The notes under the pieces: generated by a model
What the model saw: the letters and a program-made list of their open reading frames with translations, nothing else
Database searches by the model: none
Told to the model about the DNA's origin: nothing
Shown: positions 897 to 7,239 of the stretch, one piece after another
Numbering within the stretch: the first letter of the stretch is position 1
Layout of the letters: each line of letters opens with the position of its first letter
Position numbers and translations under genes: made by a program
Origin: Escherichia coli
GTDB taxonomy: Bacteria > Pseudomonadota > Gammaproteobacteria > Enterobacterales > Enterobacteriaceae
Length of the DNA: 64,000 nt
Strand: one strand, 5' to 3'
Assembly: GCF_003018255.1 (NCBI RefSeq)
Contig: NZ_CP027440.1

Positions 897-2573
897 ATGG
901 CACTAACAGATCGCGCTATAGTCCACGCCAAGCCTTGTGGCAAGCCGTATAAGCTCAGTGACTCGCATGGACTTTACCTGCTGGTTAACCCTAACGGTTC
1001 AAAACGCTGGTACATCAAGTACCGCTTTGTAAACAAAGAGAAAAAGCTCGCTTTAGGCCCTTATCCGCTTTTGACGCTTGCACAGGCAAGACGCATGCGT
1101 GAAGAGGCACAATTATTGCTGATTTCCGGCATCGATCCGAGTGCACGCCGAAAAGCAGAACGCCTTGCGATAACGCCGGAACATACGTTTGAGTCTGTGG
1201 CACGTGAATGGGTCACCAGTAACGTGAACTGGTCGGCGGAACATAAGAAGCGGGTGCTGCGTTATTTCGAGCTTTACGTATTCCCCACGAACGGCAGCTG
1301 TGACATCACCAAAATGAAGGTCAAAGATCTGCTGGTGCCCATCAAGGAAGTGGAGAAAGCGGGCAAACTGGATGTTGCTTCCCGGCTTCAGCAGCGCACT
1401 GCCTGCGTGATGCGCTACGCCGTCCAGAACGGCATTATCGATCATAACCCTGCATCAGATTTAACCGGCGCGGTCTCCACGCCCAAAGTACGGCATCACC
1501 CGGCGTTGGATCTGAATCTTATCCCTGATTTCCTGGAAAGAATCGACGATTACAAAGGCCGTCAACTGACTCAACTGGCGGTAAAACTGGCACTGCTGCT
1601 GTTTATCCGCTCCAGCGAACTGCGCTTTGCCCGCTGGGATGAAATTGATCTGCGTAACGCCATGTGGACCATCCCCGCTGAGCGTGAGCCGATCCCCGGC
1701 GTTAAATATTCAGCGCGTGGGGCGAAGATGCACTCCCCACACCTGGTCCCATTGTCACGTCAGGCCATCGAACTGCTGCACGAGGTGCGGCAGCATTGCC
1801 GACCGGGAACTGAACTGGTGTTCCCCGGCGATCACAATTACCGCAAGCCGATGAGTGAAAACACCATCAACAAAGCGCTGCGGGTGATGGGCTACGACAC
1901 CCAGAAAGATGTCTGTGGCCACGGTTTTCGCACTATGGCCTGTAGCGCGCTGGTGGAGTCGGGGCTGTGGTCAAGCGACGCGGTAGAGCGCCAGATGAGC
2001 CATCAGGAGCGCAAGCGCGTGCGTGCGGCGTATATCCACAAGGCGCAGCATCTCGAAGAACGTTGGGAGATGATGCAGTGGTGGGCGGATTATCTGGATG
2101 CAAACCGGTTCAGGCATGTTGTGCCGTATGGCTTCAAAAAGTCGCCGGGAGGCGCACTCGACCATATGAGTTTCCAGGAGCGCAATGACCGGCAGCTAGA
2201 GGAGCTGAAAGCCAGAATACTGGCTGACTCGGAATGGCTGACGGCGTCTGAATTATCCGCAAAAGCGGGCTTTCGTTCCGCCGATCCTGATGCTGGTCCG
2301 AAAGGCTGGAAAGCCGCCGGGAAGATATTCTCGCTGAAGGTCGATGGTGAGGATTTATACCCTGATTATGTTCTGGATGAGAAAATGCGGCCTCTCAAGG
2401 TTGTCCGTTTGATTCTTTCACTGTTTAAGGAGCGTAAAACACCGTGGGGGCTGGCTATCTGGTTTGGCTCGGCTAATCGCAGGTTGAGAGGTGGGAGGCC
2501 GAAAGACCTGCTGATTTCGAAGTCAGAGTTGGTTCTGATGGCGGCGCAGGAGGAGGTGGAGTCGGGGGAGTAG
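897..2573 (+). CDS. P4-type tyrosine integrase with an unusual ~140-aa C-terminal extension
   Basis: 558-aa ORF starting MALTDRAIVHAKPCGKPYKLSDSHGLYLLVNPNGSKRWYIKYRF, typical P4/CP4-57-type integrase N-terminus with catalytic-domain motifs (HGFR, RAAY). The ORF runs ~140 aa beyond the usual integrase end (...WADYLDANR). Confidence 0.85.
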   Translation: MALTDRAIVHAKPCGKPYKLSDSHGLYLLVNPNGSKRWYIKYRFVNKEKKLALGPYPLLTLAQARRMREEAQLLLISGIDPSARRKAERLAITPEHTFESVAREWVTSNVNWSAEHKKRVLRYFELYVFPTNGSCDITKMKVKDLLVPIKEVEKAGKLDVASRLQQRTACVMRYAVQNGIIDHNPASDLTGAVSTPKVRHHPALDLNLIPDFLERIDDYKGRQLTQLAVKLALLLFIRSSELRFARWDEIDLRNAMWTIPAEREPIPGVKYSARGAKMHSPHLVPLSRQAIELLHEVRQHCRPGTELVFPGDHNYRKPMSENTINKALRVMGYDTQKDVCGHGFRTMACSALVESGLWSSDAVERQMSHQERKRVRAAYIHKAQHLEERWEMMQWWADYLDANRFRHVVPYGFKKSPGGALDHMSFQERNDRQLEELKARILADSEWLTASELSAKAGFRSADPDAGPKGWKAAGKIFSLKVDGEDLYPDYVLDEKMRPLKVVRLILSLFKERKTPWGLAIWFGSANRRLRGGRPKDLLISKSELVLMAAQEEVESGE

Positions 2574-2735
2574 GAATGGTTACTCAACCCTGAAAGAATG
2601 CGTCCAACTACTCTTTACCCTTCTTTCTTTAATGGAAAATGACGTTTGGAAGGTTGAATAAGGCATCGCATTTCTGGCGGTCTTTTTTTGATCATTTACG
2701 TTGCTTCTTTCTTTATTTGTTCATAACATTGTTTT

Positions 2736-2752
2736 GTTCATGATTCATGAAC
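2736..2752 (+). promoter_or_regulatory. 17-bp palindrome GTTCATGATTCATGAAC upstream of the two-gene NTase cassette; candidate operator
   Basis: Palindrome seen directly, about 20 bp upstream of the start codon at 2757; a near-identical copy lies at 4582-4598. Confidence 0.45.
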
Positions 2753-2756
2753 AGTT

Positions 2757-3770
2757 ATGAGGTGTGAACAAATGAAGGAAGAACAGCTTTTGTCTGATGC
2801 GATAGAGAATCTGCCAAAAGGATTCCATTTGCAGTATGAACATAGCGGTAGACATGGTAAGCACGATGCCTGGGGTAAGCTAACAGGGCCGGATGGTGAG
2901 TCAGTGATATTTGCTCTGGAAGTAAAATTTATCCACCGTAAAGAGTCACTGATGGCTGTTCGCGAACAAATGGTTCGCTTTCCTGCGGATTTTCCTGTGC
3001 TGCTGGTGTGTAACCGCCTGACGTCTGCACTGGCGGAATATTGCGCCGACAGCCAGATCAACTTTATCGATACGGCAGGGAATGCCCGTATCCAGGTTCC
3101 AGGCTTGTATGTGCGGATCGAAGGCCGCTATGAAAAGAAACCCGTTTCCGCCAGCAGTCGTTTTGCTGAAGGGGTGATGAAGCTTCTTTTTGTTTTGCTG
3201 TCTAGCCCAGAGACCCTGAACGAGACTTACCGCAGTCTGGCCGGAAAGGCAGGTATCTCTCTGGGAATGGTCAGCAAGGCTTTTGATTATCTCGAAGCGC
3301 AACGCTATTTCCGCAAATCGAAGAAGGGGCGTCGCTTAATCAATGAAGGCGAGTTAGAGGCTTTGTGGCTGAAAGATTATGCTACAGCTTTGCGCCCTAA
3401 GCTGGATTCGCTTTCTTTATCCGCGCCTGTTTCATGGGATGAGTTGACGCTTGCGTCCGGGGAATACTGGAGCGGCGAGATTGCGGCGGCAAAGCTGAGC
3501 GGAGGATACCTGATACCAGAAAATGGCGTGATTTTTACATCCCATCCGTTGTTACAAAGGCGAAAGGAACTGGGACTAAAACCTGTTCCGGGGGGGAAAC
3601 TACAGCTGATCGCCGGTTTTTGGGGGAACTTTGTACTGAATCACAAAGCCGAGGCGATGCTATGCGTGGCTGAACTGCTGGCAAGCGGGGATGACAGAAA
3701 CTGGGAAACAGCAAGGATAATCAATGACAAATATCTTCACCTTAATGAATCCGATCTCTTCAGCTACTGA
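2757..3770 (+). CDS. Hypothetical protein, first gene of two-gene cassette; possible DNA-binding or antitoxin-like partner of the nucleotidyltransferase
   Basis: 337-aa ORF (alternative start 2772). N-terminal segment PDGESVIFALEVKF resembles a PD-(D/E)xK motif; central segment GISLGMVSKAFDYLEAQRYFRK looks like a helix-turn-helix. Overlaps the downstream gene. Confidence 0.55.
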   Translation: MRCEQMKEEQLLSDAIENLPKGFHLQYEHSGRHGKHDAWGKLTGPDGESVIFALEVKFIHRKESLMAVREQMVRFPADFPVLLVCNRLTSALAEYCADSQINFIDTAGNARIQVPGLYVRIEGRYEKKPVSASSRFAEGVMKLLFVLLSSPETLNETYRSLAGKAGISLGMVSKAFDYLEAQRYFRKSKKGRRLINEGELEALWLKDYATALRPKLDSLSLSAPVSWDELTLASGEYWSGEIAAAKLSGGYLIPENGVIFTSHPLLQRRKELGLKPVPGGKLQLIAGFWGNFVLNHKAEAMLCVAELLASGDDRNWETARIINDKYLHLNESDLFSY

Positions 3771-4533
3771 AACGTTACTGAGTCAGATCAACCGTATTTG
3801 CACCGCTCAGGGGATCCCGTTTTTTATTGCAGGTGCAACGGCTCGTGAAATTCTGCTCCATCATATACACAGCAGAAGTATTGGTCGCCGAACCCGTGAT
3901 ATTGATATTGCCGTCTTTGTGGATAGCTGGCCGAGATTTGATGCGCTTAAAAATGCTTTCCTTGCTGAAGGGGCAGAAGTTGTCCAAGGTAATGCCCATC
4001 GTATGATTGTCAAAGGGATCGAGCTAGATATTATTCCTTTTGGTGGTGTTGCTGAAGGAAATCAAATTGCCTGGCCACCAGAACGTGAGATCATAATGGC
4101 TGTGGATGGATTTGCCGAAGTCTTTTCTCATACCGTAGTTGTGCGGCTGGATAACAGCGAAAATATTCCGTTCTGCTCCTTGCCAGGACTGGCTCTGTTA
4201 AAACTTTTTGCATGGCGTGATCGTGGGCATGGGAGTACTAAAGACGCGACCGATCTCTTTAAGATTATCTGTGAATATGGTGTTATCGAGAATGAACGCA
4301 TCTATGAATCGCCCGTCGAAGGGGAACGCCTGAACTGGGATCCCATACGTATGGGCGCTTTTCTGTTGGGAAGCGATATAGCGACAATTAGTGAACACTC
4401 ATCCTTGCAGGATTTACTCCATCTTGATAAAGAACGCCTGATCGATGTGATAGTACGACAACATGACGTGGGTGATGCTGGGATTGAGCAGATCATCAAT
4501 GATTTCTGGGATGGTATGGCAAGTGATGGTTGA
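3724..4533 (+). CDS. Nucleotidyltransferase-fold protein (Pol-beta superfamily; AbiEii/DUF1814-like or MNT-like)
   Basis: 269-aa ORF with the minimal NTase signature AGATAREILL...RRTRDIDIAVFVD (Gly-rich loop followed by DxD) and a downstream acidic motif GIELDIIPFG. Start codon uncertain; overlaps the upstream gene. Confidence 0.6.
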   Translation: MTNIFTLMNPISSATETLLSQINRICTAQGIPFFIAGATAREILLHHIHSRSIGRRTRDIDIAVFVDSWPRFDALKNAFLAEGAEVVQGNAHRMIVKGIELDIIPFGGVAEGNQIAWPPEREIIMAVDGFAEVFSHTVVVRLDNSENIPFCSLPGLALLKLFAWRDRGHGSTKDATDLFKIICEYGVIENERIYESPVEGERLNWDPIRMGAFLLGSDIATISEHSSLQDLLHLDKERLIDVIVRQHDVGDAGIEQIINDFWDGMASDG

Positions 4534-4581
4534 GGATGTAGTTTTAGATGAAATGTTCACAACAGAGTTTTGTTCATGAAT

Positions 4582-4598
4582 CATGAACGGTATTATTG
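4582..4598 (+). promoter_or_regulatory. Second copy of palindrome GTTCATGAATCATGAAC, part of a ~45-bp direct repeat of the cassette leader
   Basis: 4563-4607 repeats 2721-2772 at roughly 85 percent identity, including the palindrome and a GTGAACAA-ATG start context. Confidence 0.45.
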
Positions 4599-4678
4599 TG
4601 AACAATGGCAGGGCGTAACGCCAACTGCCCGATTAAGATGCGCTTATGTTATCAATAATGCCAGCCCAGAGTCAGTCG

Positions 4679-4797
4679 CGACATCATCAAACTGAAGGTC
4701 AAAGGCTTGCTGGTTCCCATCAAAGATAGTGGAGAACGCAGGTAAACTTGATGTTCCACCTTCCACGGCGCACCGCACCTTCGGCATGATGCGCTAA
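4679..4797 (+). pseudogene. Fragment of a second P4-type integrase gene
   Basis: Nucleotide alignment to 1310-1420 of the intact integrase (gacatcatcaaactgaaggtcaaagg... versus gacatcaccaaaatgaaggtcaaaga...), roughly 75 percent identity with a 1-nt indel. Translates to DIIKLKVKGLLVPIKD then stop. Confidence 0.55.
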
Positions 4798-4840
4798 TAT
4801 TATGGCTATATAGGTATTGAAAAGATAAAATATTATCACT

Positions 4841-5329
4841 ATGGCTAAAAAAACGGCTCCCTTAGTTCCCGGTACTAATCAGTTGCTTGCTGAGTTTGGC
4901 GAACGGCTTAAGCTGGCGCGACTGCGACGTAAGCTCACAGCGAAGCGGGTTGCTGAGCGAGCCGGGATGTCGCCAATGACCTTGCGTTCTCTTGAATCAG
5001 GCGGGACGGGCGTGACAATCGGCGCTTATTTGTCAGTTATGCAGATTTTGGGTCTTGAAAAGGATCTGAACAAACTTGCCGCTGAGGATGAACAGGGACG
5101 CCAACTTCAGGATTCCCGGCTAATAAATAAAACGCGTGTTTCTCGTCCTGCTGCTATCTCTCACACAAACAGGCATACCGGAAACGTGATAAAAAACGAT
5201 GCCTTCGACAAGCAATTCTCGACATCACAAGAAAAATCAATCGATTCTGAAGTTAAAACAGAAGTCGTGACATCTGCATCTCTTGCTGCACTGCTAAAAC
5301 CAATAAAGAAACCCAGAAAAGGTAGCTGA
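4841..5329 (+). CDS. Xre-family helix-turn-helix transcriptional regulator with low-complexity C-terminal tail
   Basis: 162-aa ORF; HTH segment [23 protein letters not shown]; good start context. Confidence 0.6.
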
Positions 5330-5692
5330 CACGCTGGAATTTTTGTATTGAAACGAGGGACTATAGATTTCGATAGCAAAAAATAAAGCCTGCTGATGAT
5401 ATGTTTAAAAAATGCCAAAAAATGTACATATGGCGTTGATATGTCGATGCTGTAAACATATTTTGGCGTTATGTCGATAAAACTGGTTTTTTTAAACATA
5501 TCGTCATGCTTAATCCAACCGCTCAATCAGTCTTATATCTGTTATGGAAAATGCTTGTAAAATGGCGCGTTCTGCCATCTGGCAATGTTCATATTTACTG
5601 GCTCGAGGAATATCGTCCCCCCTTAATTTCCATGAAAAGTAATTTTAATTCATTTAGTTATTAATCTTTTCTCCGCTGAGAATATGAATTTT

Positions 5693-5739: not shown

Positions 5740-6081
5740 ATGAACGTAACCTCACCCAAAATGTTGTCTCAGGCAATCAGGGATGCACGCAAGCAACGTA
5801 ACCTGACCCAGCGTGAAACTGCAGCAAGTATGGGCATGAAACAGTCAACGGTTTCAGAGTTTGAGAACCATCCTGAGGGGACCAGCCTGGATACGCTCTT
5901 TAAGCTGCTTGCCGCTCTGGACCTTAAGCTTCAGGTCGTAAGCTGGAGGGGTAAAAAAACTCTTCTGATGGCTGGGAGCAGGAGTGGTGATCTGTGGAAA
6001 TATGAACAAAAAGGCCATGGCGCTATCCGGACGGAACCACCATTTTCACTAGCGTACCATCTGGATTTCCAGAGCACATAA
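5740..6081 (+). CDS. HipB-like Xre-family HTH regulator (antitoxin-like), apparently without a HipA kinase partner
   Basis: TQRETAASMGMKQSTVSEFENHPEGTSLDTLFKLLAALDLKLQV resembles the HipB HTH core; GGGGGA ribosome-binding site before ATG 5740; no kinase-length ORF downstream. Confidence 0.6.
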   Translation: MNVTSPKMLSQAIRDARKQRNLTQRETAASMGMKQSTVSEFENHPEGTSLDTLFKLLAALDLKLQVVSWRGKKTLLMAGSRSGDLWKYEQKGHGAIRTEPPFSLAYHLDFQST

Positions 6082-6585: not shown

Positions 6586-7239
6586 ATGAAGAAGAAACTG
6601 CCAGACCAGCTTTCCAGGGAATGCATTATTGCGGCTATGCGTGCCTATGATGAAGGTGTACGCCACCAGTTCAGCGAGTCCCGGCTGTATGATGTGGTCT
6701 TTGAAGGGCGCAGTTATCCACCGAAAGCTATAGTCGGTATTGCTGCTTCAAATATGACTGGCGTTGAGTTTTCCCCTGAAGATTTTAGTGGTGGTATCAA
6801 GTCGAAATGCGTCAAGTTGCTTACCGATCAAGGGTTCCAGATCGTTGAGAAACATTTGGGTAACGAGCAGCCCGCCATCAGTATTTTTCCTGATGAACTG
6901 CCACCGCAGAGCGTATTTACTGAAGGTGCAGCTACGCAGGTAACGGTTAATCGCTATGAACGCGACCGTAAGGCCCGACAGGCCGCATTAGCCTGGCATG
7001 GTTGTCTGTGCAAAGTATGTGGTATTGATATGATGAAGGTGTATGGCGAGATAGCGAAAGGTTTTATCCATATACACCACCTGATTCCGCTATCAGACAT
7101 CAAAGAGAATTACTCTCTGGATCCCAAAAAAGATTTTATTCCCGTCTGCCCAAATTGCCACGCCATGTTGCATCGGCGTAATCCGCCTTTTTCGCCTGAA
7201 GAATTGAAATCAATTATTGAATATCATGCGGCTCTTTAG
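6586..7239 (+). CDS. HNH endonuclease with N-terminal domain of unknown function (possible modification-dependent restriction enzyme); paralog of 61354-62004
   Basis: C-terminal HNH motif CKVCGIDMMKVYGEIAKGFIHIHHLIPLSDIK...PVCPNCHAMLHRR; about 60 percent amino-acid identity to the ORF at 61354. Confidence 0.7.
   Translation: MKKKLPDQLSRECIIAAMRAYDEGVRHQFSESRLYDVVFEGRSYPPKAIVGIAASNMTGVEFSPEDFSGGIKSKCVKLLTDQGFQIVEKHLGNEQPAISIFPDELPPQSVFTEGAATQVTVNRYERDRKARQAALAWHGCLCKVCGIDMMKVYGEIAKGFIHIHHLIPLSDIKENYSLDPKKDFIPVCPNCHAMLHRRNPPFSPEELKSIIEYHAAL

Follow-up and report, generated by a model that had tools for sequence, protein, structure and literature searches.

Why should a two-gene cassette carry what looks like its own operator at both ends, once before its first gene and again directly after its last? 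The question is raised by a 64,000-nucleotide stretch of Escherichia coli DNA (contig NZ_CP027440.1, assembly GCF_003018255.1; “the window” denotes this whole stretch), in which a putative antitoxin/repressor gene and an overlapping predicted nucleotidyltransferase (NTase) toxin gene lie between two copies of a direct repeat, here called op1 (operator copy 1, upstream) and op2 (operator copy 2, downstream; Table 1). We propose, with moderate confidence, that the cassette is an AbiE-like toxin-antitoxin or abortive-infection module of the COG4861-COG4849 type, and that op2 would serve as an auxiliary antitoxin-binding site, acting either by looping or as a roadblock that insulates the operon.

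A repeat search recovered a 38-nt ungapped direct repeat (2718-2755 against 4554-4591, 87% identity) and a second block (2763-2778 against 4597-4612), giving a repeat unit of ~53 bp. Both copies contain the 17-bp palindrome GTTCATGAWTCATGAAC, of the form GTTCATGA(T/A)TCATGAAC, at 2736-2752 and 4572-4588; with up to two mismatches allowed, it occurs exactly twice in the 64 kb, against 0.01 matches expected. A preliminary description of the window, made from its letters alone, had reported direct repeats that each hold such a palindrome, and these are real, the coordinates it gave (2721-2772 and 4563-4607) being close and slightly short on the left. The structure extends beyond the palindrome: each copy is a dyad of four TGTTCA half-sites, all four of which are present in op2, where a 2-nt deletion leaves the right spacer that much shorter than in op1. 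A position weight matrix built from homologous loci scores op1 at 71.2 and op2 at 40.4, the next best site in the window scoring -1.2.

Table 1. Features of the cassette and its surroundings (window positions, except where the locus of a relative is named).
Feature	Position	Strand	Details
P4-type integrase gene	897-2573		first island gene
Terminator-like hairpin and T-run	2665-2690	+	stem 2665-2681, then CTTTTTTTGA; just 5' of the cassette promoter
Predicted sigma-70 promoter	2701-2729	+	-35 TTGCTT 2701-2706; 17-nt spacer; -10 TAACAT 2724-2729
op1	2718-2770		dyad centre 2744
op1 half-sites	2718-2723; 2735-2753; 2765-2770		TGTTCA; TGTTCATGA-T-TCATGAACA; TGAACA; 11-nt spacers
Antitoxin/repressor gene, AbiEi_2 (COG4861-type)	2772-3770	+	332 aa
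Toxin gene, MenT1-like / COG4849-type DUF1814 NTase	3724-4533	+	269 aa
op2	4554-4604		starts 20 nt after the toxin stop
op2 half-sites	4554-4559; 4571-4588; 4599-4604		TGTTCA; TGTTCATGA-A-TCATGAAC; TGAACA
17-codon open reading frame	ATG 4605 to TAA 4658	+	directly after op2
Xre-type helix-turn-helix gene	4841-5329		162 aa
Phosphatase gene, L017	3202-3882	minus	
Phosphatase gene, L018	3202-3882	minus	
Phosphatase gene, L019	3160-3879	minus	
Phosphatase gene, L020	3122-3883	minus	
Phosphatase gene, L023	3080-3805	minus	

The upstream copy sits where an autorepressor would be expected to bind. It overlaps the predicted -10, the predicted +1 (near 2736, within the central palindrome) and the interval between the Shine-Dalgarno sequence and the ATG, in which its outer-right half-site lies. 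The promoter was read by eye and falls below the threshold of a consensus scan; homologous loci keep the same register, with a -10 of TAATAT or TAAAAT and a -35 of TTGC--. This placement would correspond to the usual autorepressor geometry, and because op1 covers the -10, the +1 and the ribosome-binding region, we propose that the operon represses itself.

The same site accompanies the antitoxin gene across its family. In 46 loci from species-representative genomes, collected through the antitoxin, the central palindrome lies just 5' of abiEi in 45, down to 36% protein identity; it reads GTTCATGAWTCATGAAC in Enterobacterales, Shewanella, Marinomonas and Aeromonadales and TTTCATGAWTCATGAAA in Vibrionaceae, and the outer half-sites hold a fixed 17-bp register. 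The exact 19-mer occurs in at least 120 metagenome contigs, and ~62 of those matches listed carry an adjoining abiEi homologue of only 27-43% identity, so that, on these comparisons, the DNA site is more conserved than the protein. Several other contigs with the 19-mer show the full four-site layout beside more divergent open reading frames (ORFs) resembling the antitoxin's N-terminal domain. Such strong phylogenetic footprinting points to the repeat being the operator of the family, presumably bound by the antitoxin. Autoregulation through inverted repeats in the promoter is established for COG5340 antitoxins (PMC3985639, PMC7319586), and by analogy op1 would play this part in the COG4861-type family. 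A literature search for the operator sequence returned nothing.

The number and setting of these sites vary in metagenome relatives. About 11 of them (L055, L061, L063, L071, L082, L091, L110, L129, L130, L148 and L161) carry a pair of complete operators in the promoter region, separated by 55-84 bp; members of the family thus differ in operator copy number. Four-half-site operators that adjoin no recognisable abiEi (L095/L115, L086, L109/L127, L156, L165 and L171) could be solo operators, sites used in trans, or neighbours of genes too divergent for tblastn. One 1.6-kb contig without AbiE genes (L125, 1394-1446) holds the 19-mer twice, 34 bp apart, in a short tandem repeat (ctgttcatgattcatgaacaggt.tgagctgaac). 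Viral contigs gave three matches to the 19-mer, with no AbiE genes and at an estimated frequency near chance level, and a pair of sites 3.7 kb apart in L101 proved to be a large inverted duplication and was set aside as uninformative.

What the two genes encode can be stated more firmly than it was at first. Two ORFs, 2757-3770 (337 aa) and 3724-4533 (269 aa), overlap by 47 nt. The first had been described as a 337-aa protein; the ORF of that length exists, and the gene starts at the ATG at 2772 rather than at 2757, according to RefSeq and all aligned homologues, which gives 332 aa. Its C-terminal third matches the Pfam family AbiEi_2 (PF09952, E 4.6e-15, residues 193-327 of the 337-aa ORF, nt 3333-3737), which we take to be equivalent to COG4861. 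In identical E. coli genomes RefSeq names the product “type IV toxin-antitoxin system AbiEi family antitoxin”, and that of the second gene, which matches Pfam AbiEii (PF08843, E 3e-4), “nucleotidyl transferase AbiEii/AbiGii toxin family protein”. The preliminary description had likened the pair to AbiE or MenT systems, rightly, while adding that it did not obviously match them; Pfam and RefSeq do place it in known families. NCBIfam has no match for either protein and PADLOC none for the first, and its single match for the NTase is to a weak candidate model (PDC-M21B, E 0.0035), which makes the pair a distant branch.

The first protein has 118 homologues of equal length. Its AlphaFold2 model (predicted local distance difference test score, pLDDT, 89) shows three domains: a restriction-endonuclease-like N-domain (residues ~1-120), a winged helix-turn-helix (~130-190) and the C-terminal PF09952 domain. 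A PD-(D/E)xK motif and a central helix-turn-helix had been suspected from the sequence, and the predicted fold agrees, with the alpha-beta-beta-beta-alpha-beta core of the PD-(D/E)xK superfamily present and the antitoxin's “D...EVK” falling in the model where the PD-(D/E)xK residues belong. Fold matches to winged helix-turn-helix and nuclease proteins were obtained with this model; a profile search of PDB sequences with the antitoxin returned nothing.

The toxin is placed chiefly by its fold and its motifs. An overlapping Pol-beta-fold NTase with the signature G-x-T...DIDIA had been proposed, and the motif is found as G-A-T...DIDIA; in an alignment of 25 homologues, to which all residue statements on the toxin refer, the acidic triad D59, D61 and D102 is invariant, a result that could have gone against the proposal. 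Invariant or nearly so are G37-A38...R55-x-T57-x-D59-x-D61, D102, K160...R167 and K173-D174..D177, with G37, R55, T57, D59, D61, D102, K160, D174 and D177 fully invariant; motif III (KLFAWRDR) shows no variation at K160, L161, A163 or W164, and conservation of at least 90% at R167. Dy et al. (2014; PMC3985639) described two linked pairs, COG5340-COG2253 (classical AbiE) and COG4861-COG4849, and gave motif III of COG4849 as KLxAaxxR, a signature that K160-L-F-A-W-R-D-R167 fits. In a Foldseek search with the AlphaFold2 model (pLDDT 92.5), ranks 1-5 are all MenT1 chains (8an5/8an4/8rr5; E 1.2e-6 to 3e-5, target TM-score 0.55-0.61), followed by ANT(2'')-Ia (E 4e-5), CCA-adding enzymes and CdnE (E 1.6e-4, TM-score 0.26), while a profile search of PDB sequences is nearly empty (MenT1, E 0.13). 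MenT1 has been assigned to the COG4849 family (2026 preprint). A hidden Markov model alignment sets the toxin's RRTRDIDI on RFTRDVDI of MenT1, and the MenT1 residues that have been functionally tested, namely R37, T39 (the phospho-acceptor), R40, D41, D43, K137 and D149/D152 (PMC11375011), map to R55, T57, R58, D59, D61, K160 and D174/D177, invariant or nearly invariant here.

The two genes also behave as a pair. An NTase gene follows abiEi in 41 of the 46 loci, so the linkage seen in the window holds in other genomes. Among those 41, the toxin gene is frameshifted or internally deleted in seven (L005-L008, L011, L014 and L045), the region of the DxD motif being lost in Serratia sp. DD3; in four further loci (L030, L041-L043) it has been deleted and the antitoxin kept. 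Throughout all 11 toxin-decayed loci the antitoxin gene and op1 are intact, and such decay of the toxin with retention of the antitoxin, in a sample gathered through the antitoxin, is the asymmetry typical of toxin-antitoxin pairs. These observations bear on whether the cassette is a toxin-antitoxin module at all, for the NTase might instead be a small-molecule or antibiotic-modifying enzyme (ANT(2'')-like) or a signalling enzyme of the cGAS/DncV-like (CD-NTase) type under a repressor, with the nuclease-fold protein as effector. The Foldseek matches to ANT(2'')-Ia and CdnE would suit this, as would the report that MenT2, the only tested toxin linked to a COG4861 partner, is non-toxic in Mycobacterium smegmatis and E. 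coli (PMC7450476). MenT1, however, ranks above both, the motifs specific to DUF1814 (KLxAaxxR and KD..D) and the phospho-acceptor loop are invariant, and the overlapping bicistronic layout and the asymmetric decay point the same way. The marks of a CBASS (cyclic-oligonucleotide-based antiphage signalling) system are likewise absent, given the low TM-score to CdnE, the weak PADLOC match and a partner that is a DNA-binding AbiEi_2 protein. We give this alternative barely any credence.

With op1 as the operator of a probable toxin-antitoxin operon, the question narrows to op2. In the 46-locus survey it is found only in Franconibacter (antitoxin 97% identical), Marinomonas flavescens and Oceanimonas smirnovii, the last two being its only occurrences beyond the enterobacterial clade. 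Sampling of the close clade added Brenneria goodwinii, Salmonella enterica and three metagenome/Logan contigs; no op2 was found there in Buttiauxella, Serratia sp. DD3, Pectobacterium (where the position looks decayed), Providencia and two others. Among 5426 complete E. coli genomes, 47 retain no more of the cassette than op2 and the final ~250 bp of an abiEii gene that has diverged (86%; e.g. RM10466, L002 5001-5317). The repeat-cassette-repeat unit thus recurs in other genomes, with op2 present in seven intact enterobacterial cassettes and one remnant. Its start lies 19-20 nt past the toxin stop in five lineages; in two, the gap is 50 nt. The cassettes that carry op2 lie in an integrative conjugative element (ICE) in leuX, at two different chromosomal sites and in an F-like tra region (between a 431-aa gene and a convergent traC). 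Since op2 is kept across such differing contexts, it travels with the cassette.

The pattern of substitution within op2 points the same way. When the eight copies are compared, 20 of the 23 columns that fall in half-sites show no variation, and none of the 11 left-spacer columns is invariant (Fisher p = 1.3e-6); between the orthologous copies of E. coli and Franconibacter the half-sites are identical at 30/30 positions and the spacers at 12/20 (p = 2e-4), the flanking non-coding DNA being ~65% identical (by reading). Half-sites that stay constant while spacers vary among orthologous copies carry the signature of purifying selection, as would be expected of a protein-binding site. Comparisons of op1 with op2 within a genome (L030, L048) give the same pattern and were not relied on, because they cannot separate selection from the arrival of another allele's operator. 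In one metagenome relative (L178, 4286-4338) the two spacers of op2 are complementary to each other, making the whole ~51-bp site a near-perfect palindrome.

Two simpler functions for op2 were considered and rejected. The preliminary description had suggested a duplicated operator/promoter or a cassette boundary; the operator part holds family-wide, and the promoter part fails. Where op1 is overlain by a promoter, the -35 and -10 equivalents of op2 are TGTAGT and CAACAG, poor matches that leave no promoter, and a convergent gene comes next in four lineages (L174, L179, L182 and L030), which excludes op2 as a promoter for a gene further on. The start codon and 17-codon ORF noted after op2 are present, yet Franconibacter homology stops at 4611 and the 15-codon ORF found there is unrelated, and the ORF in the window is probably not a gene. 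Nor does the palindrome, which a terminator scan had flagged, behave as an intrinsic terminator: its RNA fold z-score is -1.9, it lacks a U-rich tail, and Oceanimonas (L030) already has a good terminator of its own ahead of op2, which counts against termination as the main role of op2.

Several observations nonetheless weigh against a regulatory role for op2 in a toxin-antitoxin module. Its absence from most family members means that it is not required for function; the short right spacer, shared by the E. coli, Franconibacter and remnant copies, could weaken cooperative binding; no solved AbiEi structure (6Y8Q, 1ZEL) is among the top fold matches of the antitoxin's C-domain; and the harmlessness of MenT2, cited above, applies here too. 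In the window, moreover, op2 adjoins recombination scars. The 784 bp to its right (4612-5395) are absent from that place in Franconibacter and in the E. coli remnants, and are therefore read as an insertion or local rearrangement; they include an internal fragment of a P4-type integrase (4681-4796, ~residues 131-169, 77% identical to the Franconibacter integrase gene) and the Xre-type gene of Table 1. These scars keep a relic origin plausible, op2 being then what remains of the operator of a neighbouring or duplicated cassette since lost, or the mark of an unequal crossing-over. The lack of a promoter and of a conserved ORF after op2, its patchy distribution and its decayed appearance in Pectobacterium would all be expected of such a relic, and in Marinomonas (L048) the repeat, 240 bp long, reaches 170 bp past the operator and takes in the 3' end of the carboxypeptidase gene upstream, as a duplication would. 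Neutral decay would not, however, be expected to spare half-sites and erode spacers, either between the orthologous E. coli and Franconibacter copies or across all eight, nor would it readily account for a stop-to-op2 distance fixed at 19-20 nt in five lineages or for a unit that moves intact between unrelated contexts. We therefore regard a relic as unlikely overall, though plausible in individual lineages, and as by some way the most serious competitor to an auxiliary binding site.

The nuclease-like N-domain invites another explanation, that the operators are recombination sites of a mobile cassette, with the unit excised and inserted by exchange between op1 and op2, site-specific or through short homology, or with homing-like cutting at operators by the N-domain. 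Homology between genomes does break off close to the right-hand end of op2, within ~10-15 nt, as seen in the window, in Franconibacter, in the E. coli remnants and in L030 and L048; two relatives (L020, L023) have a second operator-like site flanking an accessory phosphatase gene, and there are the metagenome operators without abiEi beside them. Among 76 family representatives at no more than 50% identity, the putative catalytic residues, all kept in the window protein, are well conserved and not invariant: D32 in 63 (plus three with E; 87%), E50 in 63 (plus one with D; 84%) and K52 in 70 (plus two with R; 95%), with D100, G103 and N104 in all 76. Against mobility, the D and E are replaced in ~15% of members, most cassettes have op1 alone and yet occupy differing contexts, the left boundary of homology lies ~35-60 nt 5' of op1 rather than at it, the L048 repeat runs well past the operator, and the deletion behind the 47 E. 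coli remnants was not operator-mediated. We judge operator-based recombination highly improbable. Only a little less doubtful, and still very unlikely, is that the N-domain is catalytically active on the bracketing operators, whether in a self-mobilising, homing-like or excisable cassette or as a second, DNA-cleaving effector released on infection.

The N-domain is nonetheless a constant part of the antitoxin. Its family comprises 2196 representatives at 50% identity (~700 at E < 1e-10), and since the full-length members are nearly all 330-360 aa, the three-domain architecture is the rule. The domain scores low against the PD-(D/E)xK proteins NucS/EndoMS, AF1548, XisH and MspJI, with no match at sequence level, and it differs from them in that its acidic residues are not invariant and that it is fused to a repressor-antitoxin, not to a repair or restriction enzyme.

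An auxiliary binding site at op2 would fit the following scheme. The NTase, by analogy with its relatives, would block translation by adding nucleotides to tRNA 3' ends. The first protein would bind op1 through its winged helix and so repress its own operon, while its AbiEi_2 C-domain would neutralise the toxin, probably by inducing auto-phosphorylation of Thr57 in the R-x-T-R-D-x-D loop, a route suggested by MenT1, MenT3 and AbiEii. The repressor, probably a tetramer on the four half-sites, would occupy both ends of the 1.8-kb operon. Bound at op2, it could loop to op1 and so strengthen repression, in the manner of lambda CI at OL and OR, or it could form a protein roadblock against transcription running out of, or antisense into, the toxin operon in variable DNA. 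The terminator-like hairpin, itself only moderately supported, and the T-run/GAGAATTTGC/TTGCTT block kept 5' of the operator in the enterobacterial clade might loosely fit an insulated module. Looping or insulation through op2 is offered as a hypothesis, as is any activity of the nuclease-fold domain.

Phosphorylation as a means of control gains interest from a sister clade. Two Serratia species, an Enterobacteriaceae isolate, Leclercia and Proteus, five relatives in all, have a gene for a lambda-type Ser/Thr phosphatase (motifs GDxHG...GDxxDRG...GNHE) that is divergent from abiEi and shares its operator region; the second operator-like sites of L020 and L023 lie at the 3' end of this gene. 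The arrangement fits a toxin held inactive by phosphorylation, and suggests a three-gene variant in which the phosphatase would reverse that modification.

The superfamily of the cassette is a known one, under which its genes are already annotated; the cassette represents an uncharacterised COG4861/COG4849 branch whose antitoxin has a nuclease-fold domain. With AbiE of Streptococcus agalactiae and Lactococcus (COG5340 and COG2253; PMC3985639, PMC7319586) it shares a bicistronic order with the antitoxin first and an overlapping toxin, a DUF1814 Pol-beta NTase with motifs I-II (hG[GS]x(n)DhD), III (K...R) and IV (D), an antitoxin combining a winged helix with a C-terminal domain of its own, promoter inverted repeats that would suit negative autoregulation, and carriage on mobile elements. 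It differs in both proteins: the antitoxin is of PF09952/COG4861 rather than COG5340 type, with no match to 6Y8Q among its top fold hits, and its winged helix is central and preceded by the nuclease-fold domain instead of standing N-terminal before an AbiEi C-domain as in 6Y8Q / Rv2827c; the toxin is of COG4849/MenT1 rather than COG2253 type. The AbiE operator consists of two 23-bp inverted repeats, whereas here a 53-bp dyad of four half-sites is joined by a second operator after the toxin gene.

MenT1 of Mycobacterium tuberculosis (Rv0078A; PMC7450476, PMC11375011) offers the closest solved fold and the equivalents of the R-x-T-R-D-x-D loop, K137 and D149/D152, but its own antitoxin is a 68-aa peptide without a DNA-binding domain. 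MenA2 (Rv0837c), the partner of MenT2 (Rv0836c), is closer on the antitoxin side, going by its description: it is COG4861-type and larger than its toxin, as here (332 against 269 aa), though no operator, nuclease-fold domain or 3' operator has been described for it.

Looping of lambda CI between OL and OR (~2.4 kb), lac O2 and gal OI are examples of long-range or auxiliary operators. The likeness is one of architecture only, in that one repressor would have two multi-site operators, here 1.8 kb apart and the distal one without a promoter; the difference is that the distal site here brackets a toxin-antitoxin operon. We found no description of a second operator right after the toxin gene of a toxin-antitoxin module, and the bracketed two-operator layout, conserved in related bacteria, is apparently undescribed.

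The COG4861-COG4849 branch is large and the gene pair has been known since 2014, while the operator, domains and mechanism of its antitoxin are undescribed. The present analysis supplies a testable operator of four TGTTCA half-sites that is more conserved than the proteins beside it, a set of toxin residues mapped onto the active site and phospho-acceptor threonine of MenT1, and a layout in which a second operator, apparently under selection, moves with the cassette among ICEs, plasmids and chromosomes. Should op2 loop or insulate, it would show how a toxic operon stays independent of context while hopping between mobile elements, and the linked phosphatase gene provides a handle on control of the toxin by phosphorylation.

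Mobile carriage is evident both in the family and in the window. Homologues were found on 138 plasmid records, among them those of Ralstonia, Vibrio and Pantoea, and on none of 50,697 phage records. The left end of the window falls in the E. coli ahr / tRNA-Leu(CAA) region, with the tRNA at 590-674, and the island that follows is 100% identical to that of E. coli JNE23-011 and 99.6% to those of four further complete genomes. Its P4-type integrase, MobH relaxase, ArdC, TIGR037xx “integrating conjugative element” genes, TraD, PilL2 and STY4528/4534-type replication genes identify it as a PFGI-1/SPI-7-class ICE in leuX, and the cassette lies directly 3' of the integrase gene.

Some further features of this setting are recorded here. 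The integrase ORF is 558 aa long, but its Pfam domains stop at residue 384, leaving the last ~170 residues without any match, and RefSeq labels the gene in an identical genome a C-terminally incomplete pseudogene; the ORF may therefore be a fusion with downstream sequence. A guess by eye that this extension is a DUF2384 antitoxin remnant found no Pfam support. To the right of the cassette, 5396-5500 holds AT-rich inverted repeats (ATATGTTTAAAAAA / TTTTTTAAACATAT) and direct repeats (GGCGTT(G)ATATGTCGAT) upstream of a HipB-like helix-turn-helix gene (5740-6081); these may be another operator, and parts of the segment are kept beside op2 in Franconibacter and the E. coli remnants. Between the helix-turn-helix genes and the MobH relaxase gene, 6586-7239 encodes a 217-aa HNH endonuclease with weak PADLOC matches to type IV methyl-directed restriction enzymes (E 6e-6 and 2e-5), which may be a small defence gene. 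The E. coli remnants themselves sit in a decayed leuX defence island, with a type I restriction-modification fragment, an M48 peptidase pseudogene and BREX nearby. More defence-type cargo lies at the far end of the same ICE (L172 42632-49521 in E. coli JNE23-011, ~53000-60000 of the window), where DUF262 and DUF3696 genes, a DNA cytosine methyltransferase with Vsr and a RelE/ParE-CopG toxin-antitoxin pair are accompanied by a fimbrial operon with a tyrosine invertase.

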